From IMG/VR virus record IMGVR_UViG_3300042383_001692: DNA of 20,000 nt, one strand, 5' to 3'. A program made the translations under genes and the position numbers. The notes below the pieces were generated by a model. It searched no databases. It had not been told where the DNA came from and was given only the letters and a program-made list of their open reading frames with translations. The stretch is from an uncultured virus (IMG/VR IMGVR_UViG_3300042383_001692). Its lineage: Duplodnaviria > Heunggongvirae > Uroviricota > Caudoviricetes. Below are positions 2,697 through 17,277 of the stretch, in pieces (the stretch's first letter is position 1; each line of letters starts with the position of its first letter).

Positions 2697-2776
2697 CTGC
2701 AAGCCTCCGGAGAGATTCGAACTCTCACATTCGCAAAAGGCGAAATTCTAGCCAGTTAAATCACGGAGGCTTGCAG
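2697..2776 (-). ncRNA. atypical tRNA-like RNA with a shortened anticodon loop and a 13-bp acceptor stem
   Basis: CTGCAAGCCTCCG...D-arm (AACTGG)...TTCGC-CTTTT-GCGAA...GAGAG TTCGAAT CTCTC-CGGAGGCTTGCAG. T and D arms are normal; the anticodon loop is only 5 nt. Confidence 0.75.
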
Positions 2777-7088: not shown

Positions 7089-7126
7089 AGGTTCTCCTTA
7101 TGCTTGGAGGGGTTCCATATCCCCCG

Positions 7127-7145
7127 CTCATGCGGCCGTCAGGCC
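7127..7145 (-). promoter_or_regulatory. TGAC-loop hairpin motif, copy upstream of the AAA/VWA operon
   Basis: GGCC-TGAC-GGCC-GCATGAG, one of 11 copies in the window. Confidence 0.7.
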
Positions 7146-7172
7146 AAAACTTCTCGAGTTTTCCAGCAAATC

Positions 7173-7442
7173 TCAAATTCCGACTTCTTTGCGCGCAGCT
7201 TCCATTTTTTCCCGGTTGTATACGTCAAACTTTTGCAGCCAGCTCCACGCGTACTTGTATCCCGGGGAATCGCTTTCTTCAGCCTTCACTTTTTCAATTT
7301 CCGAAAGCGAAACGCTTTCGTAAATTTCCATGAAATGGCGCATCATTTCAGGGTTTTCCTTGTAAGAAACAGTCAAATAGCAAATTGCCTTAAGGCGATT
7401 GCTGATTTTTCTCATCGACTTCCATTTCTGTTTTTCTTCCAT
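7173..7442 (-). CDS. hypothetical protein (~89 aa)
   Basis: ATG 7442 (MEEKQKWKS) preceded by AGGTGG. Confidence 0.6.
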   Translation of the reverse strand: MEEKQKWKSMRKISNRLKAICYLTVSYKENPEMMRHFMEIYESVSLSEIEKVKAEESDSPGYKYAWSWLQKFDVYNREKMEAARKEVGI

Positions 7443-7770
7443 GTATAACCACCTTTGCGTTTTTAAATAAACCAAACACTTTGGCGAGTTCAATGCGTTC
7501 GAGATTGGAAAGACCTGCAAAGTTTTCAGGAATTGCAATATCTATTCCTTCTCTTTGTGCGTCTCTAAACCTATCTTCACAGACAAGTTCATGTGGAAGA
7601 CGCAAAGCGGATGCTCGAAGTTTTGCACGCCCCGTCAACGAGACTTTTGTGCCAAATCTGATGCGAGCGGGACACGCTGCAGCTCCTATATACGGAATCT
7701 TTCCAGAAGCCATAGTTCCGCTGCCGGAAATTCCATCTCCTGAATCCGGCGAATATGCGGTAATTGACAT
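7390..7770 (-). CDS. 3D-domain (cell wall lytic transglycosylase-like) protein
   Basis: ITAYS...TMASGK...AACPARIRFGTKV...CEDR...IDI fits the 3D-domain pattern. Start chosen right after the stop of the upstream ORF; it could extend further upstream. Confidence 0.75.
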   Translation of the reverse strand: MSITAYSPDSGDGISGSGTMASGKIPYIGAAACPARIRFGTKVSLTGRAKLRASALRLPHELVCEDRFRDAQREGIDIAIPENFAGLSNLERIELAKVFGLFKNAKVVIHGRKTEMEVDEKNQQSP

Positions 7771-7777
7771 GAAATAT

Positions 7778-8095
7778 TCACGAAAAAGAATGCTCTTTTC
7801 TGAGAATTTCCACGATTTTGCAGAACTCTCCGCTTCGAAATTCAGCAACGCATTTTTTCCATGAGATGGAAATGGTATTGTGAAAAACCAGAAAATCGTC
7901 AGGATTTTCCAGAAGACGAAACGGAAGGGCTTCCATTGACTCTGAAATTTGAACAATTTGTTTGAGGCATGCACGTTTGCACGGGGAGTAAAGAGACTTG
8001 ATTCCATACTCCCGGGTAGAACGAGAGTAAACGAATAGCAGGACGGGAATTCCGTTCTGTTCTGCTGTGGACCATTGAATCAAATGCTCTTGCAT
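7778..8095 (-). CDS. hypothetical protein (~105 aa)
   Basis: ATG start; ends 7 nt before the chosen 3D gene start. Confidence 0.5.
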   Translation of the reverse strand: MQEHLIQWSTAEQNGIPVLLFVYSRSTREYGIKSLYSPCKRACLKQIVQISESMEALPFRLLENPDDFLVFHNTISISWKKCVAEFRSGEFCKIVEILRKEHSFS

Positions 8096-8641: not shown

Positions 8642-9053
8642 TTATTTCCTCCGCACTCAAATGCTTGATTAAACCCTGCATTACTGTGTCAACCAAAACA
8701 ACACGAATAGGCTTTTTCATGGCCAGCATTGTTTTGATCATGTGAGTAGTGCCCGGACTGCTGCCGTCATAAAACACAACGGCGGCATCTGCATATTCTG
8801 CCATGCGCTCATTTCGACGCATGCCCGCAGAACGTCCTTCTTCATCCCACTTTGCAGGCATCAAACAAATGCGGTATCCATGCTTCAACGCATACGCTCG
8901 ACCAAGGGTGTCTGGTCCCTGCGCTCCTCCGGATATCACTTCAATTCTGCATTCATTCTTTTTGTAAACAAGAAGATTATTCACAACCTCTTCTAGTTTG
9001 TCGTAATTGCAGAAAGACCGGCTTCCTGCAATTACAAGTCGAAACGTGTTCAT
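8625..9053 (-). CDS. YspA-like SLOG family protein (DUF2493)
   Basis: LVIAGSRSF...VISGGAQGPDTLG...PAKWDEEGRSAGMRRNERMAEYADAAVVFYDGSSPGT. ATGA overlap at 9050-9053. Confidence 0.9.
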   Translation of the reverse strand: MNTFRLVIAGSRSFCNYDKLEEVVNNLLVYKKNECRIEVISGGAQGPDTLGRAYALKHGYRICLMPAKWDEEGRSAGMRRNERMAEYADAAVVFYDGSSPGTTHMIKTMLAMKKPIRVVLVDTVMQGLIKHLSAEEINAVGR

Positions 9054-9319
9054 TTGTTCCTGCTCCATGCAACCAGCGGCGTGTTGAATAGATTCACACC
9101 GTTGGCCAGCATCTGTTCTGCATCCTTGACGTCGTCTTCAGAAAAAACCCAGTAGGACATGATCGCTCCATCCCACGGATCGTTCGTATACACGAGCGTC
9201 ATCCCGAGATTACTGGCGTCTTTCTGGTCAAGAGCGCTGTAATCGACCATGACCGCCTTGTTTTGCGATTCTGCAATTTTGATCAATTCAAGCACGATGT
9301 TCTCCTTGGCTGTCTTCAC
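9050..9319 (-). CDS. hypothetical protein (~89 aa)
   Basis: Tightly packed minus-strand ORF. Confidence 0.6.
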   Translation of the reverse strand: MKTAKENIVLELIKIAESQNKAVMVDYSALDQKDASNLGMTLVYTNDPWDGAIMSYWVFSEDDVKDAEQMLANGVNLFNTPLVAWSRNK

Positions 9320-9563: not shown

Positions 9564-9771
9564 TTACCCTGTAGGAAGAAGAGTTGTCGCAAAACTGCGA
9601 CACGACAGAAACGTTGTCCTTGTTTTCCTTTTCCTGAAAGAGGCAGGAAAACATTTCGTTGCTGACTCCTCCATACCGCGTGCAGGCGCGGCCAAACAGA
9701 CTGCTTCTTTCCATCACGGTCCCTAGGATCATTGACGCAAAAATCACGATGGCTACTGCGATCTTTTTCAT
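9520..9771 (-). CDS. small protein with an N-terminal signal/TM segment
   Basis: MKKIAVAIVIFASMILG; GGAG SD. Confidence 0.6.
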   Translation of the reverse strand: MKKIAVAIVIFASMILGTVMERSSLFGRACTRYGGVSNEMFSCLFQEKENKDNVSVVSQFCDNSSSYRVIVSSDERRYTLYCE

Positions 9772-9786
9772 TTTTGACTCCAAAAC

Positions 9787-9820
9787 TCCGGGTTTTGTTG
9801 ACGCGGACCCGGAAACCGCG
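9787..9820 (-). ncRNA. H-type pseudoknot motif after a stop codon
   Basis: CGCGG-UU-UCCGGGU-CCGCG-UCAACAAA-ACCCGGA. Confidence 0.7.
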
Positions 9821-9825
9821 AGAAA

Positions 9826-10281
9826 CTAGAACGGAATGTCCTTGTCGAGAACGTCTTCGCGGGCAACAGAAGTCTCTTCCTTCTTCTGCTCTTCGCCCCA
9901 CTTGGCCAGCTCAAAGACCATCGGCTTGCTGTCAGGATCGTTGCGATCGCAGCGAATCCACTTGCCGGTGTCGTCCTGCTTTGCCGTAAACGGATTCAGC
10001 CACAGGCTGCCGCTCTTGTCGGGATTCAGCAGCCCGTAGACGGACGCCTTGGCCTTGAGGCCGCGGACTTCGCCGGTCTCCTCGTTCTCGATGCGCTCCC
10101 ACTTGAAGTTGTCTGCAAACCCGATCGGAACGGTAAGAGCCGCACTGAATTTCAGTTTGAACGTCACCACGCCGTCGGCCTGCGTGTAGGCCTGCCACGA
10201 CTGCGCGCGCAGGACCTCGCGCTTGCCGTCCTTGGTGCGAACATTGTTTCGATACAGCGTCACATTGTGTCGATTGCTCAT
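9826..10281 (-). CDS. beta-rich protein with an SSB-like acidic C-terminal tail (possible second SSB)
   Basis: AGGAGG SD; ends ...EDVLDKDIPF. Confidence 0.75.
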   Translation of the reverse strand: MSNRHNVTLYRNNVRTKDGKREVLRAQSWQAYTQADGVVTFKLKFSAALTVPIGFADNFKWERIENEETGEVRGLKAKASVYGLLNPDKSGSLWLNPFTAKQDDTGKWIRCDRNDPDSKPMVFELAKWGEEQKKEETSVAREDVLDKDIPF

Positions 10282-10337
10282 AAAAAACTACCTCCTGAAC
10301 TCTAATCACCATATGAACGAGCACGCGCCCGTTCACT

Positions 10338-10357
10338 CCTATACGCGCGTCAGCGCG
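10338..10357 (-). promoter_or_regulatory. TGAC-loop hairpin motif abutting a hammerhead
   Basis: CGCGC-TGAC-GCGCG-TATAGGAG (variant tail). Confidence 0.7.
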
Positions 10358-10421
10358 GTCTCCTCAGCGCAGGCATCACCTGCGGATCATCGGGGAGAAG
10401 AATCTCCCCTAGATTTCGACC
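10357..10421 (-). ncRNA. hammerhead ribozyme, type II (HH-A)
   Basis: GGUC-GAAA-UC UA GGGGAGA UUCU UCUCCCC GAU GA-UC^-CGCAGG UGAUG CCUGCG-CUGAGGA-GACC. Predicted cleavage after AUC, between 10385 and 10384. Confidence 0.92.
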
Positions 10422-10466
10422 TGGTTAATGGCGTCGGCATGCTTGCGCACACCGACGCCGACAAAA

Positions 10467-10658
10467 CTACCGCCAGCGCAGCTCTTCGAGGTCGTCCGAC
10501 CCCCAGAAACTGAGCTGACCACTGTTCCCCCCGAGCTTCTCGATGATCTTCCGTGCGAGTTCTTCGGCGTCCCAGTCGTAGTTCACGACCGTGACGTCGA
10601 TTTCCTCTTCGTTGAAGCTCCAATCAAACGACACTCGCGGATCCTTCTTCTTGCCCAT
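10467..10658 (-). CDS. small acidic hypothetical protein (63 aa)
   Basis: AGGAGG SD with ATG. Confidence 0.7.
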   Translation of the reverse strand: MGKKKDPRVSFDWSFNEEEIDVTVVNYDWDAEELARKIIEKLGGNSGQLSFWGSDDLEELRWR

Positions 10659-10670
10659 GTTTTTTGCCTC

Positions 10671-10880
10671 CTACCTGCAACTGCGCGTCCATCCATGCTC
10701 CGTGCGCGCATACACGGTTTCCTGGTGCATGGTTCTCAAATTACGAACGACGATTTCGCTGATTCGATCGTCATGCTGATAAAACGAAAGAAGGGCTCGA
10801 TACTCCTCGAGCCCTTCTGAACTGACGGTCACCACGTTCAGGCGACCGTCAGTTTGGAAGCGAAGTTCAATGACGTTCAT
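10671..10880 (-). CDS. hypothetical protein (69 aa)
   Basis: ATG 10880 (MNVIELRF); its GAGGAG SD is supplied by the hairpin motif. Confidence 0.7.
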   Translation of the reverse strand: MNVIELRFQTDGRLNVVTVSSEGLEEYRALLSFYQHDDRISEIVVRNLRTMHQETVYARTEHGWTRSCR

Positions 10881-10887
10881 TTTTCTC

Positions 10888-10907
10888 CTCATACGGCCGT
10901 CAGGCCG
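10888..10907 (-). promoter_or_regulatory. TGAC-loop hairpin motif (the loop TGA is the hicB stop codon)
   Basis: CGGCC-TGAC-GGCCG-TATGAG-GAG. Confidence 0.75.
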
Positions 10908-11118
10908 CGGGAACTGGAACCTCCATTCCCGCATCCAATGCCACTTCGATCCACAAGCGCATGGCATCCTCGATCATGGCGCCGACTTCCTCGAAGGTAT
11001 CCGCCTCAGTCGCGCAACCCGGCAATTCGCGAACGCGCGCGAACCACACCGGATGATCTCCGGAGAGATCCTGGGTCACTTCGATGGTGTAGGGAAGGTT
11101 CATATAGTGGTCTACCAT
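10900..11118 (-). CDS. hicB: HicB-like antitoxin, N-terminal domain only, orphan
   Basis: YMNLPYTIEV...WFARVRELPGCATEADTFEEVGAMIEDAMRLWIEVALDAGMEVPVP is a typical HicB. GAGGA SD. Confidence 0.88.
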   Translation of the reverse strand: MVDHYMNLPYTIEVTQDLSGDHPVWFARVRELPGCATEADTFEEVGAMIEDAMRLWIEVALDAGMEVPVPAA

Positions 11119-11130
11119 TTTTATCCTCAA

Positions 11131-11322
11131 CTAATCGCCGAGTTCCGCAATCTTGCGATCCACCAGAGCGCGGAAACTCTGGTTGTCGTAGCGGATTTCT
11201 CCGCTTTCGAGCGCCTTGTCGAACGCCTGAATGGCGCCCTTGAGGCCTTCGACGCCGGCGTTCACATCGCCGGCACGCGCAACTTCCATTGCTCGTTCGA
11301 CCATTCTTACAAACTTGTGCAT
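11131..11322 (-). CDS. small helical hypothetical protein (63 aa)
   Basis: GGAG SD with ATG; not HicA-like. Confidence 0.65.
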   Translation of the reverse strand: MHKFVRMVERAMEVARAGDVNAGVEGLKGAIQAFDKALESGEIRYDNQSFRALVDRKIAELGD

Positions 11323-11429
11323 TTTTTTACTCCAAAAAAAGACTCCGGTTTTGATAGAGAACCGGCAAACTCCGGGGTTTATGGCTATGCCCCCCTAACC
11401 GCACAGCGGGTTAAAACGGATAGAAGCAC

Positions 11430-11473
11430 AACCCTGTCAGGGAATCGAACCCTGATAAATCGCCAGACAGGGC
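11430..11473 (-). ncRNA. minimal tRNA-like structure (acceptor stem + T-arm)
   Basis: GCCCUGU-CUGGCGAUUUAU-CAGGG-UUCGAUU-CCCUG-ACAGGGU-U, with exact 7-bp + 5-bp geometry. Confidence 0.7.
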
Positions 11474-11519
11474 AATCTTCGTCCTACCGCATAGCTTGCA
11501 ATTCAAGTGAGGATTGCTC

Positions 11520-11539
11520 CTCATGCGACCGTCAGGTCG
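11520..11539 (-). promoter_or_regulatory. TGAC-loop hairpin motif
   Basis: CGACC-TGAC-GGTCG-CATGAG-GAG. Confidence 0.75.
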
Positions 11540-11660
11540 AATGCGCCTTGGCTCCGGAGATTCGACGTGGTCATCTCCAAACCAGAGTTGCGGCGCTTCT
11601 GTTGTCATCCGCGAGGGAAATAGTCCCGCATTTCTGCTGGTCCACTCTATTTCCATTACT

Positions 11661-11725
11661 GGTCTCGTCAGCACCCGCATTACGGGTGGATCATCGGGGA
11701 GCTTTCGCTCCCCTAGATTTCGACC
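11661..11725 (-). ncRNA. hammerhead ribozyme, type II (HH-B)
   Basis: GGUC-GAAA-UC UA GGGGAGC GAAA GCUCCCC GAU GA-UC^-CACCCG UAAUG CGGGUG-CUGACGA-GACC. Predicted cleavage between 11689 and 11688. Confidence 0.93.
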
Positions 11726-11734
11726 TTATGGGGA

Positions 11735-12031
11735 TCAGAACGGGATTTCCCCGTCCTGATCCTTCTCCTTTCCCTGCCAATACTTCTCGATTTCGGAATC
11801 GAGAAGGTTGGCAAGGAACATTGCCACGCGGAGTTCGTCGTCGCCCTGCTCGCGCGCAAGACGCACGAGCTCTTCGGTGATCTTGCAATCACCGAAATTC
11901 TCTAAATTGGTGACAAACTGATCGAGTTCGTCACTGATTTGGAGATATCCTCCAATCACGTTTGCGTCGTGCCACGCCGCCGTCAATTGAATGACGGCGA
12001 ACATGACTGCTTGGAAATTGTTGTCGTTCAT
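11735..12031 (-). CDS. hypothetical protein (98 aa) with an SSB-like tail
   Basis: ATG 12031 (MNDNNFQ) after GAGGAG; ends KDQDGEIPF. Confidence 0.75.
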   Translation of the reverse strand: MNDNNFQAVMFAVIQLTAAWHDANVIGGYLQISDELDQFVTNLENFGDCKITEELVRLAREQGDDELRVAMFLANLLDSEIEKYWQGKEKDQDGEIPF

Positions 12032-12038
12032 GATTCTC

Positions 12039-12058
12039 CTCATACGCCCGTCAGGGCG
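12039..12058 (-). promoter_or_regulatory. TGAC-loop hairpin motif
   Basis: CGCCC-TGAC-GGGCG-TATGAG-GAG. Confidence 0.75.
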
Positions 12059-12080
12059 TTTTTGCCAACAAAACCCCACT

Positions 12081-12141
12081 GGTCTCATCAGTGTGCGCAT
12101 CACGCACAGACCCCTTGCATCGCACGCAAGGGATTTCGACC
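12081..12141 (-). ncRNA. hammerhead ribozyme, type II (HH-C)
   Basis: GGUC-GAAA-UCCCUUGC GUGCGAU GCAAGGGG-UC^-UGUGCG UGAUG CGCACA-CUGAUGA-GACC. Predicted cleavage after GUC, between 12109 and 12108. Confidence 0.95.
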
Positions 12142-12150
12142 TGTCTCGGC

Positions 12151-12495
12151 CTAGGAAATGACTTCCCAGACCGAGAATTCAAACGACGCAGAAGAAATTT
12201 CTGCGTCACTGTATTCCGCAACGCCTTCGCGTCGCGGCAAACCGCGAACCGACATGACCACGAGCTTGTCGTTCAGCCCAAGCTTGACCATCGGCGCCTT
12301 CGCTGGCACTTCGACCATCAGGCCGAAGCGCCTCTGCATTGCGATGATCGTTGCGCCATGCGAGGGGTTCAACGCCGGGATGACCCCAGCGTTGACCAGT
12401 TCGCGGACGGCCTCGACCGTGACGATCTTGCGGGTGACCGTCACGTCACCCGCAAACATGCCGTCGGCGACGGCAAAGCTAAAGTAAGTGCTCAT
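12151..12495 (-). CDS. probable DUF1874 / AcrIII-1-like ring nuclease (STIV B116-like), divergent
   Basis: 114 aa. YFSFAVADGMF / ALNPSHGAT (His46) / VKLGLNDKLVV / LPRREGVAEYSDAEI / FEFSVWEV follow the order and spacing of the B116-family blocks as recalled (NAFS.NM / AIGH..T / V.L..GD..(I/L)V / RL.EG.VL...EI / FY.V). GGAGG SD. Confidence 0.68.
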   Translation of the reverse strand: MSTYFSFAVADGMFAGDVTVTRKIVTVEAVRELVNAGVIPALNPSHGATIIAMQRRFGLMVEVPAKAPMVKLGLNDKLVVMSVRGLPRREGVAEYSDAEISSASFEFSVWEVIS

Positions 12496-12533
12496 TTTGC
12501 CTCCAAAAGAACTACTGCACACAAGACTCTACT

Positions 12534-12592
12534 GGTCTCATCAGCACACGCATCACGTGTGTATACCCCTTAGCTAGAGGGGTATTTCGACC
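12534..12592 (-). ncRNA. hammerhead ribozyme, type II (HH-D)
   Basis: GGUC-GAAA-UACCCCU CUAGCUA AGGGGUA-UA^-CACACG UGAUG CGUGUG-CUGAUGA-GACC. Predicted cleavage after AUA, between 12562 and 12561. Confidence 0.95.
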
Positions 12593-12594
12593 TG

Positions 12595-12940
12595 GACTCA
12601 CTACTGATTAGCTAGATCAATAGTGAGTCACAGCACAAGATTTCGGCTTGTGCACACCGAACGCGCACGACCGGTCCACCGGCATCTCATTGCGCGCTCC
12701 ACTACATTTCAACGCATTGCTTGTATTTGCAACTACAAACAACGCATTGAAATGCGCTCTTGCTTCCTGGTGCAAGAGAACCATCTCTCAACCAACACTG
12801 ACTCGCGGCCTCGCAAAGCAATCCCGAACGGATTGAGTCTCTGCTTTGCGACCGGGTCTCGCGGGCGACCCTGAACTGCCCGAGCACTTGCTCAGACGAT
12901 CCGCGAAACCGGATGAGAGCTACGACGCAGCCCTCAGCCA
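12595..12940 (-). ncRNA. large structured non-coding RNA of unknown class (~350 nt)
   Basis: About ten consecutive hairpins, including a 21-bp stem (12705-12754) whose plus-strand C/A mismatches are all G-U pairs on the minus strand. No convincing ORF with an SD. Confidence 0.75.
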
Positions 12941-12945
12941 AAACT

Positions 12946-13021
12946 CTCATACGCACGTCAGTGCTTTCGCACGGACACTGCGTATGCGGAACTCAAGAGC
13001 TCCTCATACGCACGTCAGTGC
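12946..13021 (-). promoter_or_regulatory. two tandem TGAC-loop hairpin motifs (12946-12964, 13003-13021)
   Basis: Both read GCAC-TGAC-GTGC-GTATGAG and lie immediately upstream of the ncRNA. Confidence 0.75.
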
Positions 13022-13044
13022 TTTACACTAACTGAGAACTCACT

Positions 13045-13105
13045 GGTCTCATCAGTGCACGCTTTACGTGCAGATCTCCCGCATCGCACGCGGGAGATTT
13101 CGACC
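13045..13105 (-). ncRNA. hammerhead ribozyme, type II (HH-E)
   Basis: GGUC-GAAA-UCUCCCGC GUGCGAU GCGGGAGA-UC^-UGCACG UAAAG CGUGCA-CUGAUGA-GACC. Predicted cleavage between 13073 and 13072. The first G is shared with the upstream TAG stop. Confidence 0.95.
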
Positions 13106-13302
13106 TACAAAGAAACGATGATCAGGCCGAGGTTGCCTCCGCAGACGAACTCGGTCTTGAGCCCTCCGAGCTCAAAGAGGACTTGCTGGGCAAGGGCGTC
13201 TTCGCCCTCGCGCAGATGCCACACGACATTCCCTCGATCTCCGTAGTCAAGGGCGTCCATCACGCCCTCGACCGTCTGCCACTTCACCTTGTTCTCGTTC
13301 AT
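13105..13302 (-). CDS. hypothetical protein (65 aa)
   Basis: AAGGAG SD; ATG 13302 (MNENKVKW). Confidence 0.7.
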   Translation of the reverse strand: MNENKVKWQTVEGVMDALDYGDRGNVVWHLREGEDALAQQVLFELGGLKTEFVCGGNLGLIIVSL

Positions 13303-13369
13303 AACACTCCTTCGGGAAAGCTCTGCGGCCTCCCATATGCGAACAATTAAGAGAGCACACAAGCTTCTC

Positions 13370-13447
13370 CTCATACGCACGTCAGTGCTTTCGCACTACA
13401 CATGCGTATCAGGAGGAAGCAAAATGCTCTCATACGCCCGTCAGGGC
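13370..13447 (-). promoter_or_regulatory. two TGAC-loop hairpin motifs (13370-13388, 13429-13447)
   Basis: GCAC-TGAC-GTGC-GTATGAG and GCCC-TGAC-GGGC-GTATGAG. Confidence 0.75.
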
Positions 13448-13551
13448 AGAGTCTCCACTCGAGACTCGCTCTGTTATGTATCACCTCCCTAACCGTTGCT
13501 GTTAGGCGAAGGAAGGGAGGTGAATACGACATCCTGTGAACCGAAAGGGTA

Positions 13552-14079
13552 TCACCGGATGGGAACCCACTCGAGGGTGACATTGTCACGCTCGGTGAGT
13601 TCGGCCGAGTTTAGGGCGAGAACCCGGCAAGCCAGCTGGGTGGCCTTCTGCTGCCAGAGCTGGACCTCCTCGTAGAAGAAGGTCTGGCGTCTGGTGAGCG
13701 GCTTGCCCTGGACCAGGCGCCGCTCGATGTCGCGCTGGGTGGACTCCCGGAGGCGCGAACCATCCATGGGGCGCCACGCCGCGATCTGGCCGGCGTAGGC
13801 CCATTCTCGCATTTTGGGGTCCGGCTTGACCCCGTGGCGCTTCGCGTATTCTGCGAAGGCCTGCGATACCGCCTCAGGGCGGATGAATATATCCCTGCGC
13901 ACATCGTCCTTGCGCACAGGAATATTCACGAACCGACCGTGGTTGACCACGGCGGCTCGGTGCCCGGGAGGAGGTTTGCCGAAGTTCTCCTCCGTTGCGG
14001 AAGGCTTGGCCGCGCTCGGCACGGCTGCCCTCCGGGTCGTGGTGGGCGCTCCACGACCAAAAGCTGGTTTCTCGTTCAT
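13552..14079 (-). CDS. basic hypothetical protein (~175 aa)
   Basis: Start taken at ATG 14079 (MNEKPAFG). The upstream extension in the ORF track runs through hairpins and a T-tract. Confidence 0.7.
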   Translation of the reverse strand: MNEKPAFGRGAPTTTRRAAVPSAAKPSATEENFGKPPPGHRAAVVNHGRFVNIPVRKDDVRRDIFIRPEAVSQAFAEYAKRHGVKPDPKMREWAYAGQIAAWRPMDGSRLRESTQRDIERRLVQGKPLTRRQTFFYEEVQLWQQKATQLACRVLALNSAELTERDNVTLEWVPIR

Positions 14080-14176
14080 GCTCGCCCCCTTCGGGCGCTC
14101 GGCCCCTAGGGGGGCCTCGCCCCCTTCGGGGGCTTCGCCCCATGAAATAAAAAGCCTCGCATTGCTGCGAAGCTTA

Positions 14177-14249
14177 CTCATACGCGCGTCAGCGCGCAGA
14201 AGAGAAAGACGGGATTCCCCGTTCTTCTCCTCATACGCGCGTCAGCGCG
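14177..14249 (-). promoter_or_regulatory. two TGAC-loop hairpin motifs (14177-14196, 14230-14249)
   Basis: Both read CGCGC-TGAC-GCGCG-TATGAG. They are the first copies downstream of the polymerase gene. Confidence 0.75.
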
Positions 14250-14395
14250 CATAGGGAGACACTCAGTTGCGGCTACCCTTCCGAGTCGTCGCGCTGCTGG
14301 GCATCCAGCCGCGCCGGTCCGGACATCCGAAGGCGGACGCCCGAGTAAATCGTTTGCCCGTACGGATGCGCCTGAGCAAGGGCAGGCATTCGTAG

Positions 14396-14430
14396 AAAAA
14401 TAAAAAAGAGGGCGGTCATAGACCACCCTC
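14396..14430 (-). terminator. intrinsic terminator of the WYL-polymerase operon
   Basis: GAGGGTGGTC-TAT-GACCGCCCTC-TTTTTTATTTTT. Confidence 0.8.
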
Positions 14431-14475
14431 CACTGGAGCAGGAGATGATTCCAGTCACCTCCTGCCCGCTACACA

Positions 14476-17277
14476 CTACATCACGTCCGTTTCGATCACG
14501 CCGTCATCGGCGCTGGCGTAGTCGAAACCGCCGTCATCCGCCCACTCCGGCTCCGGAGTGTCTCCGTCCAGCGAAATCTCGAAGAACTCGGCCATCACTC
14601 TCCCCGTAAAGGTGATTTCCACGCTCTTCATCCCGGGAACGGTAGCGAGTTTGACGTGGTACATTCCCGTCGGAACAACCGCGCCAACCATGCCATGCGT
14701 CTGTCCGTCGCCCACGCGAACAGACAGCGGATACTTTGGCGTTTTTGCGCTTGTATCAACGACTTCGACAACCGTATACACGGTGTCGCTGTCCATATAC
14801 TTAGCGCGGAATTCCATGCCGCCCATGATCTTGCCGATCATGCCGGCCCCCACTGCGCGTCTCTCGGCAATGCTGTCCTTTCGGGCAATCAGCATCCGCG
14901 CGACTACTTCCGGAAGTGCAAACTTCATTGCAAATCCGGCGTTGTCGCCGCGAGAGAACGCAGCCCACAGCGCGCTGGCGGCAGATTCCAGCCACGCCGT
15001 GTTCTCGTTCTCCTTGCCAAGATTCATCTCGACCGCCTTGTCGCGCCAAACCTTTCGATAGCCTTCGAAAAGCTCAGCGCGCAGCATGTCGGCCATTTCC
15101 AACGCGATCTTCTTTGCCTTAAGATCGTTGGCAATGTCGCCCATGCGCTTATACAAGCGGTCGACCGCCCAGTTTGCCCACTTAAAGCCCTCTCCCGGGA
15201 TCTCCTCAATCCACCCGGCAAAGAACTTGTTGTCCAGCGTGGACAACTGGATGAGTGGCACCTCATCCTCGTGGGCGCGGATAAACGCCGCCAGCGGCAT
15301 CAGCTCCTCGTCAGGAGCGTCCACCTGACTGAAGAACCTGCTGGGCAGGATCGGCTGTCCTGGCTCCACCACCGGCCGGCCGTTAGCGTCTCCAAAGAAG
15401 CGCGCGGTCTCCACCGCTGCGTCCTCCGCCGTGCCCGCAAAGAGGGTGAACGGCTTAATGTTCTTCCTCTTCTGGAGCTGGCGGTAAGCGTGCATGGAAA
15501 GAGTAATGCCATACTCCTCCTGCGCCTCCTTGGAGAGTTTGCGGACAAGCTTCATGTCCGCAGTGGCAGCCTTCTTGACGCTGTCCACCGCCTTCTGAAG
15601 CTCGACCCGCAACGCGTCGATTCTTTCGGTCGCCAAAGCCTTGGCGTGCGCCACCATGCGCTCTATGACGACCCATTTCTGATTGACGTAGTCAATCAGG
15701 CCGATGCCGGCGGCCATTGACTGCGCAATCATCTTGCTACGATTGGTCGGCGGAACCGCCTTCTGCCGCAGCTTCTCTTCGCTAATCGGCAGTCCCTCGA
15801 CCGTCTTACGCATCTCGACCACGACCTCGTCAGGTCGCAGGATGGCAAAGGCGTCGCCATCGAAATCGAGAGCCGCACGATTCATCGTGCGTTCGTTGAC
15901 CCACGCCTCGTACCACCGCACACGTGGGTCAGCGTGTACGATGACTGCGACCATTTCATTCCGGTGGGCAAACGGGTACCGGATGGCCACAGTCTTAACG
16001 CCGTCTCGGCCTGTCTTTCCAAACAGGTGCTGGAACACCTTTGGATTGACAGCGACGACGTTGTCGCCCAAGCTTCTGTTGCAGACCGCGCGGAATCTCC
16101 ACGCGTAGATTCCCAGACCTGCCAGGATCTGGTAACCCACAGTGGCGACCCACTCGGTCAGCGCGGCAACCATCATTTTGCTGCGCATCAGCCGCGTGTC
16201 GCCGATAGCGACGCACACAGCTGCAAACAGCCTGATGATGTCGAACTGCTGGAGGTTTCCCTCCTCGTCTCGCAGCGACGTGCCCCGGCCGGCCAGCCAG
16301 CGCACGTCGCTGAGACGCTCTCGCAGTTCGCCCAGCTTTGCCGATACGAGGTCGTGCGCCTTGTTCACGACTTCGCTCGACATCCACTGGGTCACCTGTG
16401 GACCGATCAGCATGGGGCCGGCCAGGTCCTCGTCACCATTGACGATGCCGAACCCCATCATCACCTCGTGCACGCCGTCCGGAAGCACAATGCCCTTGTT
16501 GTGCTTGAGCGTGCCCCTGGGCATTACCAGGTCCACCCCGTCCGGCAGCCGAGCCGGAATCAGGGTGCCTTTGCCCAGGATCCACTTGGACGAGTCCTCA
16601 TTGTCCAAGTGGAGGATCGCGCGGAACTGCGGGTCGTTCTCAAACACGACCTTGTGCTGCGCAGCCCACGCGCGATCAATCAACCCCTGGCCGTCGCCGA
16701 TGCGGGTAAAGCCAGGATCGTCATCCTTGCATACCAGCACCCGGGCGGTCACGTGAAAGTAACCACCCCGCAGGGGCGTATGCAGCGCTCCAGGGCGCAC
16801 GGCGTCTCCCGCGTCCGGGAACATCGCCTCCATGCGCTTGGCCCAGTAAAAGTCCACCACCGGGAGCACTGCATTATTTGACTTGGCGGCCTGCGTCATG
16901 TACCGCAGCCAGCCGCATTTGCGCTCATCCGAGGGGCGGACCGGCCAGTCCACCTCAGGGATGTCGATGCCCCTGTCCTGAATGATGTCGAGGGCGAGAG
17001 TGGAGATCTCTTCCTCATCGGCATCAATGAGACTTGGGGCCAACTGTACGCCCGCGATGAGAGCGCCTTCCTCGCGGGCAATGCATGAAGCGTAGTCCCG
17101 GCGCACCCACCGGTATCCGCTTGGCTTGAGCGGACCCGGCTTGGCGTTGGACAAGCCCATGCGCTTGAGAACTGGCCAGTTGGTCACCAGCTCTCCGTTG
17201 CGTCCCTTCATCACCGGGACGACCACGAATACGTCGTGGATCGTCAAGGTGACGATAGGGACTTCGAACATCTTCAT
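14476..17277 (-). CDS. single-subunit two-barrel (DPBB) RNA polymerase, YonO / cellular RdRP-like (~933 aa)
   Basis: Ordered motifs GDGQGLI, PQFR...GKG, MPRGTLK, IRYP, catalytic DFDGD (15853-15867), IGLI and QKAVDSVKK match the conserved blocks of QDE-1-type RdRPs and phage YonO. GGAGG upstream of ATG 17277. Confidence 0.88.
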   Translation of the reverse strand: MKMFEVPIVTLTIHDVFVVVPVMKGRNGELVTNWPVLKRMGLSNAKPGPLKPSGYRWVRRDYASCIAREEGALIAGVQLAPSLIDADEEEISTLALDIIQDRGIDIPEVDWPVRPSDERKCGWLRYMTQAAKSNNAVLPVVDFYWAKRMEAMFPDAGDAVRPGALHTPLRGGYFHVTARVLVCKDDDPGFTRIGDGQGLIDRAWAAQHKVVFENDPQFRAILHLDNEDSSKWILGKGTLIPARLPDGVDLVMPRGTLKHNKGIVLPDGVHEVMMGFGIVNGDEDLAGPMLIGPQVTQWMSSEVVNKAHDLVSAKLGELRERLSDVRWLAGRGTSLRDEEGNLQQFDIIRLFAAVCVAIGDTRLMRSKMMVAALTEWVATVGYQILAGLGIYAWRFRAVCNRSLGDNVVAVNPKVFQHLFGKTGRDGVKTVAIRYPFAHRNEMVAVIVHADPRVRWYEAWVNERTMNRAALDFDGDAFAILRPDEVVVEMRKTVEGLPISEEKLRQKAVPPTNRSKMIAQSMAAGIGLIDYVNQKWVVIERMVAHAKALATERIDALRVELQKAVDSVKKAATADMKLVRKLSKEAQEEYGITLSMHAYRQLQKRKNIKPFTLFAGTAEDAAVETARFFGDANGRPVVEPGQPILPSRFFSQVDAPDEELMPLAAFIRAHEDEVPLIQLSTLDNKFFAGWIEEIPGEGFKWANWAVDRLYKRMGDIANDLKAKKIALEMADMLRAELFEGYRKVWRDKAVEMNLGKENENTAWLESAASALWAAFSRGDNAGFAMKFALPEVVARMLIARKDSIAERRAVGAGMIGKIMGGMEFRAKYMDSDTVYTVVEVVDTSAKTPKYPLSVRVGDGQTHGMVGAVVPTGMYHVKLATVPGMKSVEITFTGRVMAEFFEISLDGDTPEPEWADDGGFDYASADDGVIETDVM

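Follow-up and report, generated by a model that had tools for sequence, protein, structure and literature searches.

What might five short RNA motifs, lying between small genes and all pointing the same way, do for the phage that carries them? The question is raised by a 20,000-nt stretch of DNA (hereafter the window) from IMG/VR record IMGVR_UViG_3300042383_001692, an uncultured virus of the Caudoviricetes. The source belongs to an abundant freshwater phage lineage, and the phage measures at least 77 kb. Judged by their sequence, the five motifs, which span 2749 bp of the coding (minus) strand, are genuine type II hammerhead ribozymes with a complete catalytic core. We put at about 0.78 the probability that these ribozymes cut the nascent minus-strand transcript of a variable accessory-gene region.

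Five predicted hammerheads and their subclass

An exact pattern scan of the window (GGTCGAAA, then 20-50 nt, then CTGANGAGACC) returned five matches, all on the minus strand, and none in each of 200 dinucleotide-preserving shuffles. The elements are listed below in the order in which they would be transcribed, with their scores under the covariance model R1 described further on.

13045..13105, minus strand, type II hammerhead HH5; triplet AUC, predicted cut 13073/13072, 57.5 bits
12534..12592, minus strand, type II hammerhead HH4; triplet AUA, predicted cut 12562/12561, 51.9 bits
12081..12141, minus strand, type II hammerhead HH3; triplet GUC, predicted cut 12109/12108, 57.7 bits
11661..11725, minus strand, type II hammerhead HH2; triplet AUC, predicted cut 11689/11688, 48.9 bits
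10357..10421, minus strand, type II hammerhead HH1; triplet AUC, predicted cut 10385/10384, 43.7 bits

Read 5' to 3' on the minus strand, each element has the order GGUC-GAAA-(stem III hairpin)-U-H-(stem I hairpin)-CUGANGA-GACC. The conserved core, C3-U4-G5-A6-N7-G8-A9 with G12-A13-A14, is complete in all five, N7 being U, U, U, C and G from HH5 to HH1. The A15.1-U16.1 pair is likewise present in every element, and the cleavage site is occupied by H17, never by G. Stem II is GGUC/GACC throughout. Stem I measures 6 bp (7 when its closing U.G is counted) and its sequence differs among all five, yet it is always paired: in an alignment of the five elements (A1), 65 of 65 cells are paired and five of the six stem I pairs show changes on both sides. 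Loop I reads UAAAG, UGAUG, UGAUG, UAAUG and UGAUG. Stem III of HH2 contains a 2x3 internal loop, and that of HH1 is similar. When each element was folded singly, the minimum-energy structure was in all five cases the three-way hammerhead junction, with stems I and III capped and stem II open; the z-scores ranged from -3.0 to -4.7, and shuffles that folded as well numbered 0, 0, 0, 0 and 2 per 200.

HH5 overlaps the upstream TAG stop (13105-13107), whose final G serves as the first base of the element, and HH3 and HH2 each start 9 nt past a stop (12151-12153 and 11735-11737, respectively). HH1 starts 45 nt past a stop; HH4 is preceded by non-coding RNA and lies 38 nt upstream of the ATG of a DUF1874-like gene. 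On all these points we agree with a preliminary description of this DNA, which had proposed five co-oriented type II hammerheads in just these places on the coding strand (the pattern, the parsing, R1 and the folds concur), each with the full core and with the triplets AUC, AUC, GUC, AUA and AUC by rising coordinate. It had also noted six-bp stems I that all differ while remaining paired, a U-R-A-W-G loop, an invariant GGUC/GACC stem II, and three elements that begin 0-10 nt after a stop codon; parsing and alignment A1 bear this out, HH5 overlapping its stop by one base.

The window pattern is common in IMG/VR, where at least 124 stretches carry it. From 35 distinct 52-nt IMG/VR elements, none of them from the window, we built the covariance model R1. 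The choice of these elements followed the stem II and core pattern of the window, which leaves stems I and III, loop I and the spacings as the independent parts; in the 35, 99.8% of cells are paired and both-sided changes occur at 10 of 16 pairs. Run on the window with filters off, R1 found exactly the five elements (43.7-57.7 bits, E 2e-11 to 1e-15), the next match scoring 10.2 bits. The subclass that emerges has recognizable features. Among 139 elements from the IMG/VR stretches, the base preceding GGUC is A in 136 and the base following GACC is A or G in 129; the stem I hairpin measures 17 nt in 127 of the 136 that could be parsed; and loop I follows U-N-A-N-G: of 144 elements, the window's five included, 135 have the U, 105 the A and 120 the G. 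All five window elements conform to these features. The second pair of stem II (10.2-11.2), invariant in the window, alternates between G-C and A-U in the wider class, and a GGCC/GGCC form of stem II is found in at least 131 IMG/VR stretches.

How do these elements relate to the type II hammerheads already described? They share with the Rfam family RF02276 (Hammerhead_II) the same circular permutation, in which stem II is open and stems I and III are capped, and the same core. In the RF02276 consensus, stem II measures 2 bp and is accompanied by a 3' tail that, according to PMC3088659, pairs with loop I; the window elements differ in having a 4-bp GGUC/GACC stem II and a 5-nt U-R-A-W-G loop I, and in being without the pseudoknot. 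Rfam misses this pseudoknot-free subclass of type II hammerheads, which is common and abundant in viruses, and phage annotation therefore under-counts such ribozymes. The conserved first U of loop I, the A before stem II and the purine after it fit the loop-loop contact described for other hammerheads; we infer that in the window hammerheads loop I may contact, in a loop-type manner, the purines that flank the open stem II.

The array is conserved in close relatives. Two metagenome contigs, L130 and L131, in which the protein of the flanked DUF1874-like gene is 94% and 82% identical, respectively, carry five hammerheads each. The 15 elements of the three phages (12 of them distinct) have 97.7% of their cells paired, with double changes at 9 of 16 pairs. 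A third contig, L132, in which the identity falls to 51%, has no hammerhead. The stretch is present at least in part in DNA runs from 14 studies. A blastn search of 9800-14500 against 50,697 phage records gave no match; the exact HH5 sequence and the UGAC hairpin motif described below gave 0 matches each in IMG/VR, which indicates that the lineage is absent from the collection searched.

Several observations weigh against the proposed cutting. At gathering scores, Rfam 15 detects only tRNA and no hammerhead family in the whole window, and at E<=10 it finds zero hammerheads of any type in the 20 kb or in 2.9 kb searched separately. The preliminary description had offered this search as a check on its proposal; since R1 matches only the five elements, we read the Rfam blank as a limitation of the models. 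Similarly, on 20 IMG/VR loci with the window pattern, RF02276 matched 15 elements at 23.9-36.1 bits, all below its 37-bit cut-off. The pseudoknot between loop I and the 3' tail, which is typical of the published type II consensus (PMC3088659), was found above chance in none of the five elements: the best complement is 2-3 nt long in four, and the wobble-rich 5-nt match of HH3 was equalled in 281 of 1000 shuffles. This pseudoknot speeds many type II hammerheads.

Further points on the same side come first from the relatives. Three L131 hammerheads (7905-7975, 8654-8724 and 9217-9287) have C at 16.1, giving the triplet GCC opposite A15.1, and break the usual N-U-H rule, their core being otherwise intact; one L130 element (HH-b) has an A.C mismatch in stem II. 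No hammerhead lies within 3 kb of five distant IMG/VR homologues of the flanked gene, the upstream side of L127 excepted, where the contig ends 384 nt before the match. The ribozymes therefore do not appear tied to the DUF1874-like gene; nor were hammerheads tied to the flanked gene in the cases published in 2011 (PMC3088659). A search for sigma-70-like promoters in 9700-14600 found 0, so that the minus-strand transcript is itself a deduction. Finally, no RNA run was listed among those that contain the stretch; two runs labelled RNA-Seq have 0.05-0.07 of the words and are flagged as probably DNA, and a contig from a run so labelled spans the HH1 site unbroken, although contigs cannot reveal RNA ends.

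The predicted units and their genes

Each ribozyme would most likely cut itself during transcription, 3' of C17 or A17. The upstream product would then keep stem III, a hairpin of 8-11 bp, and carry a 2',3'-cyclic phosphate at its 3' end; the downstream product would open with the stem I hairpin, whose base would bear a 5'-OH. The predicted 5' ends on the minus strand are 13072, 12561, 12108, 11688 and 10384, and the units between cut sites measure 511, 453, 420 and 1304 nt; the ends and sizes calculated in the preliminary description were arithmetically correct. A long transcript would in this way be split into hairpin-capped units: first a 511-nt structured non-coding RNA, then single-gene messages for the DUF1874/AcrIII-1-like protein and for a 98-aa protein, and then a 1304-nt unit with four small genes, one of them HicB-like. 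The features concerned are as follows.

14407..14431, minus strand, terminator-like hairpin and U-run after a 933-aa gene; upstream edge of the variable region
13105..13362, minus strand, small gene that runs up to HH5; 85 aa if read from TTG, 65 aa if read from an ATG at 13302; 100% identical in L130
12562..13072, minus strand, 511-nt unit bounded by the cut sites of HH5 and HH4; non-coding, strongly structured
12151..12495, minus strand, 114-aa gene with a DUF1874/AcrIII-1 (ring nuclease) fold, between HH4 and HH3
11735..12031, minus strand, 98-aa gene between HH3 and HH2; 100% identical in L130
11323..11660, minus strand, non-coding leader after HH2; contains a UGAC hairpin as well as a tRNA-like acceptor/T-arm minihelix
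11131-11322, minus strand, small gene 1 of the 1304-nt unit, 63 aa
10900-11118, minus strand, small gene 2 of the 1304-nt unit, 72 aa, HicB-like
10671-10880, minus strand, small gene 3 of the 1304-nt unit, 69 aa
10467-10658, minus strand, small gene 4 of the 1304-nt unit, 63 aa

In bacterial mRNA decay, hairpin ends that carry a cyclic phosphate or a 5'-OH resist 3' exonucleases and the 5'-end-dependent RNase E or RNase J. The stability and translation of each unit may therefore be decoupled from those of its neighbours, and such decoupling would suit a region in which related strains gain and lose cassettes.

The 511-nt unit folds with a minimum free energy (MFE) of -242.7 kcal/mol (z -9.65). 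Of its 114 predicted pairs, 17, spread over several hairpins, stay paired through double changes in the three phages. It belongs to no Rfam family. The preliminary description had taken it for a non-coding RNA, and this is borne out by the behaviour of its open reading frames (ORFs): the two candidates, of 84 aa and 55 aa, show 51% and 44% protein identity to L130, within a wider block that is 92% identical at the DNA level, and were rejected as genes because their protein conservation is poor compared with that of the DNA. The unit also contains a near-perfect 64-nt hairpin at 12694-12757; at this place L130 has an unrelated sequence, which can also form a hairpin.

In the leader that follows HH2, a tRNA-like minihelix is found at 11431-11473 (minus strand), made of an acceptor-like stem and a T-arm with GGUUCGAUUCC. 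It is conserved at 8785-8830 of L131 with a compensatory change from C-G to U-A. Rfam scores it as mascRNA-like at 18 bits, below threshold, and ARAGORN does not call it.

The 114-aa protein gives no Pfam match at E<=0.01. A profile of 27 family members matched AFV3-109 (2j6b) with E 0.006, and an AlphaFold model of the protein (pLDDT 92.2) was matched by Foldseek to STIV B116, SIRV1 ORF114a, AcrIII-1 (6scf) and Crn2 with probability 1.00 and TM 0.66-0.73, the matches by identifier being 2j85, 2x4i, 6scf and 2j6b. PF08960 is found in three of the 27 family members at E<=0.01, and nine of the 27 carry it in precomputed tables. Three residues, H46, R84 and E90, are invariant in the DUF1874-like family; we take them to correspond to the known DUF1874/AcrIII-1 active site. 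The label "AcrIII-1-like" given earlier thus holds at the level of the fold (profile, AlphaFold model and Foldseek).

The other genes are less telling. The gene at 10900-11118 matches PF15919 (35 bits, cut-off 27), which supports the HicB-like product proposed for the 1304-nt unit. For the 98-aa protein, Pfam, PHROGs and the ESM Atlas yielded nothing usable, and the remaining small genes, which are conserved in relatives, have no family match in Pfam or PHROGs. To speak of an anti-defence operon, as the preliminary description did, is an overstatement: an anti-defence fold is found in only one of about seven genes, the other small genes being without a family match. The region has plausible genes on the minus strand only, and PHROG matches together with a tRNA place the array in a phage context.

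Two side observations concern the surroundings. A 933-aa ORF at 14476-17277 (minus strand) adjoins the variable region on its upstream side; neither Pfam nor PHROG gives a match for it, it is 88% identical to L131 at the DNA level, and the terminator-like hairpin that follows it (14407-14431) is a strong one. Further away, a normal tRNA-Arg(UCU) at 2247-2319 adjoins a second, tRNA-like gene at 2702-2770 (minus strand), which scores 45 bits with the Rfam tRNA model, has an anticodon loop of only 5 nt (CUUUU) and is not called by ARAGORN.

A second repeat and the borders of cassettes

Collinearity of the phage backbone with L130 and L131 extends as far as the terminator that follows the 933-aa gene and returns below about 10100. 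The region from 14387 to about 10100, in which the array lies, is the variable part between these conserved backbone genes. It contains most copies of a second repeat: a 4-bp hairpin with the loop UGAC, followed by G(U/C)AUGAG and often by GAG. There are 11 copies in the window, all on the minus strand.

14230..14248, minus strand, UGAC copy 1; stem GCGC/GCGC; one end of a 3892-nt strain deletion
14177..14195, minus strand, UGAC copy 2; followed by a terminator-like hairpin at 14152-14175
13429..13447, minus strand, UGAC copy 3; stem GCCC/GGGC; one end of a 1390-nt strain deletion
13370..13388, minus strand, UGAC copy 4; provides GAGGAG ahead of the gene 13105-13362
13003..13021, minus strand, UGAC copy 5; 23 nt past HH5
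12946..12964, minus strand, UGAC copy 6; point where homology to L130 resumes
12039..12057, minus strand, UGAC copy 7; stem GCCC/GGGC; Shine-Dalgarno sequence of the 98-aa gene; other end of the 1390-nt deletion
11520..11538, minus strand, UGAC copy 8; stem GACC/GGUC
10888..10906, minus strand, UGAC copy 9; UGA of the loop is the stop of the HicB-like gene, GAGGAG is the Shine-Dalgarno sequence of the next gene
10338..10356, minus strand, UGAC copy 10; tail GUAUAGGAG; abuts HH1; other end of the 3892-nt deletion
7127..7145, minus strand, UGAC copy 11; outside the array; tail GCAUGAGCGG

The loop and tail pattern has 8 matches where 0.15 are expected. Five stem variants occur in the window and more in L130 and L131, and all are complementary. 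The gene that follows often has its Shine-Dalgarno sequence in the motif, and twice, at window position 10906 and at 8342 of L131, the gene before it uses the UGA of the loop as its stop codon; some copies precede terminator-like hairpins rather than a gene. Other readings were considered, namely a degenerate hammerhead, a different known class of ribozyme and a promoter for a phage RNA polymerase: Rfam gives no support, and the compensatory stem favours a hairpin. In the flanks of 124 other IMG/VR hammerhead loci the motif has 0 matches, so that it appears specific to this lineage and separate from the ribozyme class. At the start of the variable region (14150-14250, minus strand), four elements come one after the other: a UGAC hairpin, a long hairpin in which its GAGGAG is sequestered, another UGAC hairpin and a terminator-like hairpin with a U-run. 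The arrangement looks like an attenuator.

Both kinds of repeat coincide with places where strains differ. L130 contains an extra 350-nt cassette with one ORF (about 83 aa) between hammerheads at 7109-7173 and 7440-7509. The two hammerheads share 29 identical bases covering stem I and the core, and their stems II are chimeric: GGUC..GGCC in the first and GGCC..GACC in the second, leaving a G.U in one and an A.C in the other, so that these stems would pair perfectly (GGCC/GGCC) across the cassette. HH5 of the window corresponds to the 5' half of the first of these hammerheads joined to the 3' flank of the second. Two further events are seen in assembled contigs. A contig from run X2 joins 10357 to 14250 and omits 3892 nt (10358-14249), that is, the whole array, with its junction in two GCGC-UGAC-GCGC hairpins; a contig from run X4 joins 12057 to 13448 and omits 1390 nt (12058-13447), with its junction in two GCCC-UGAC-GGGC hairpins. 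The repeats at these junctions measure 17-19 nt. They are shorter than the 31-mers that the assembler presumably used for these contigs, which makes misjoining unlikely, though possible. Taken together, three strain gains or losses end in hammerheads or UGAC hairpins.

These events bring forward the strongest alternative, namely that the hammerheads and UGAC hairpins act mainly at the DNA level, as joints for homologous recombination of cassettes, and that RNA cleavage is secondary or incidental. A crossover inside a ribozyme with a donor of the GGCC/GGCC type would leave exactly the pattern of L130, with HH5 combining parts of the two chimeric elements, and cis hammerheads of this presumed donor type are common, in at least 131 IMG/VR stretches. 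The exact joining of the 3892-nt and 1390-nt gaps within pairs of UGAC hairpins of the same stem, and the position of the array in the variable part of the genome, point the same way. However, patches of homology need no intact cores, no compensatory changes in stems I and III and no cleavage triplet, yet all of these are kept. Moreover, the events are only three, two of them from assembled contigs, and roles in DNA and in RNA are not mutually exclusive. We therefore regard recombination as the principal function of the motifs as improbable, although it is the alternative to be taken most seriously.

The behaviour of the UGAC motif has a precedent in the PeSL cassettes of T4-type phages, which appear to be its nearest analogy. 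PeSL cassettes (Arbiol et al. 2010, PMC2839356) are short, conserved, structured motifs that recur among the small, non-essential genes of a hyperplastic region, as do the motifs here; where close relatives differ by an insertion, deletion or replacement, the change ends in such a motif, as in the three events above. The make-up is different: a PeSL consists of a sigma-70 promoter and a terminator stem-loop, whereas the joints of the window are ribozymes and a UGAC hairpin with a Shine-Dalgarno-like tail. Indeed, no sigma-70-like promoter was found in 9700-14600, and terminator-like hairpins follow only some of the UGAC copies.

To return to cutting of the transcript, the excised units could conceivably close again: the half-ribozymes at the two ends of a unit would pair through the shared stem II, and the nicked hammerhead would ligate itself, or an RtcB-type ligase would join the ends, to give circular RNAs. 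One stem II is common to the five elements, which would make any neighbours compatible, and in both the MFE and the centroid folds of the 511-nt unit a GACC near the 5' end pairs with a GGUC near the 3' end, bringing the termini together. In L130, the pairing of stem II would be perfect across the extra cassette, whereas that within each ribozyme is imperfect. The possibility was raised by Perreault et al. 2011, who sought circular or spliced products and found none, the data not being shown there (PMC3088659). End-to-end pairing is also a trivial consequence of a shared 4-bp stem, and DNA recombination is a simpler account of the L130 pattern. We hold circle formation to be a slim prospect; if it did occur, the circles made by the phage would include the 511-nt structured non-coding RNA, and others might serve as messages for an anti-CRISPR-like protein.

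That the motifs are chance look-alikes, or decayed relics that have lost cleavage, is hardly credible: the Rfam blank and the missing pseudoknot would fit, but not even one match to the pattern occurs in 200 shuffles, all five cores are complete, compensatory variation is seen inside the window and among relatives, and a gap of at least 33 bits separates the five from the next match of a model made from other viral contigs.

Published arrays and the meaning of the locus

The arrangement, and its interpretation, were already published in 2011. Perreault et al. (PLoS Comput Biol, PMC3088659) described clustered hammerheads flanking prophage genes and proposed that they cut transcripts into operon- or gene-length mRNAs. 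Three tandem prophage arrangements were cleaved in vitro, and one, which flanks the anti-restriction gene ardA, also in E. coli. Those arrays resemble the present one in that co-oriented hammerheads within a few kb flank single genes of phage origin, or short blocks of them, of varied identity. In both cases an anti-defence gene is among those flanked, ardA there and the DUF1874/AcrIII-1-like gene here. The differences are in number (five elements here, threes in the 2011 arrays compared) and in character: the window array is without the pseudoknot, one of its units is a structured non-coding RNA, and it comes from an uncultured freshwater phage. Cleavage was demonstrated for the 2011 arrays and is predicted for the present one.

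Type II hammerheads have also been caught in action in a bacterium. In Desulfovibrio vulgaris, three were shown to cut in vivo by cyPhyRNA-seq, and they adjoin hypothetical and phage-like genes, as here (PMC8782182). They occupy three separate loci whereas the window holds an array. Among the literature searched for phage hammerhead arrays and anti-CRISPR, only unrelated reviews appeared besides the 2011 paper and a 2021 method paper.

The number of elements is less exceptional than had been thought. The preliminary description called five within 2.8 kb unusually dense; another IMG/VR contig has nine co-oriented hammerheads in 2.9 kb. This is G001 (the contig behind L025 and L026), an unrelated viral contig of 24 kb with nine co-oriented type II hammerheads at 11365-14296.

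A further parallel is found in engineered systems. RiboJ, used in synthetic biology, is an insulator engineered from a satellite-RNA hammerhead, in which a hammerhead and a hairpin beside the ribosome-binding site strip off the upstream RNA and thereby make expression independent of context. Insulators of the RiboJ type resemble the window elements in their working mode, not in class membership.

The less ordinary parts of this locus are the pseudoknot-free subclass to which Rfam is blind, the structured non-coding RNA flanked by ribozymes, the probable crossover inside a hammerhead and the UGAC hairpin. The ribozyme-flanked RNA and the UGAC motif merit study in their own right. All together, the window offers a clean, fully canonical array of five predicted ribozymes around an AcrIII-1-like gene. 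It is a tractable case for two questions left by the 2011 work, namely what clustered phage hammerheads do for the genes they flank and whether they double as crossover points in the exchange of cassettes.

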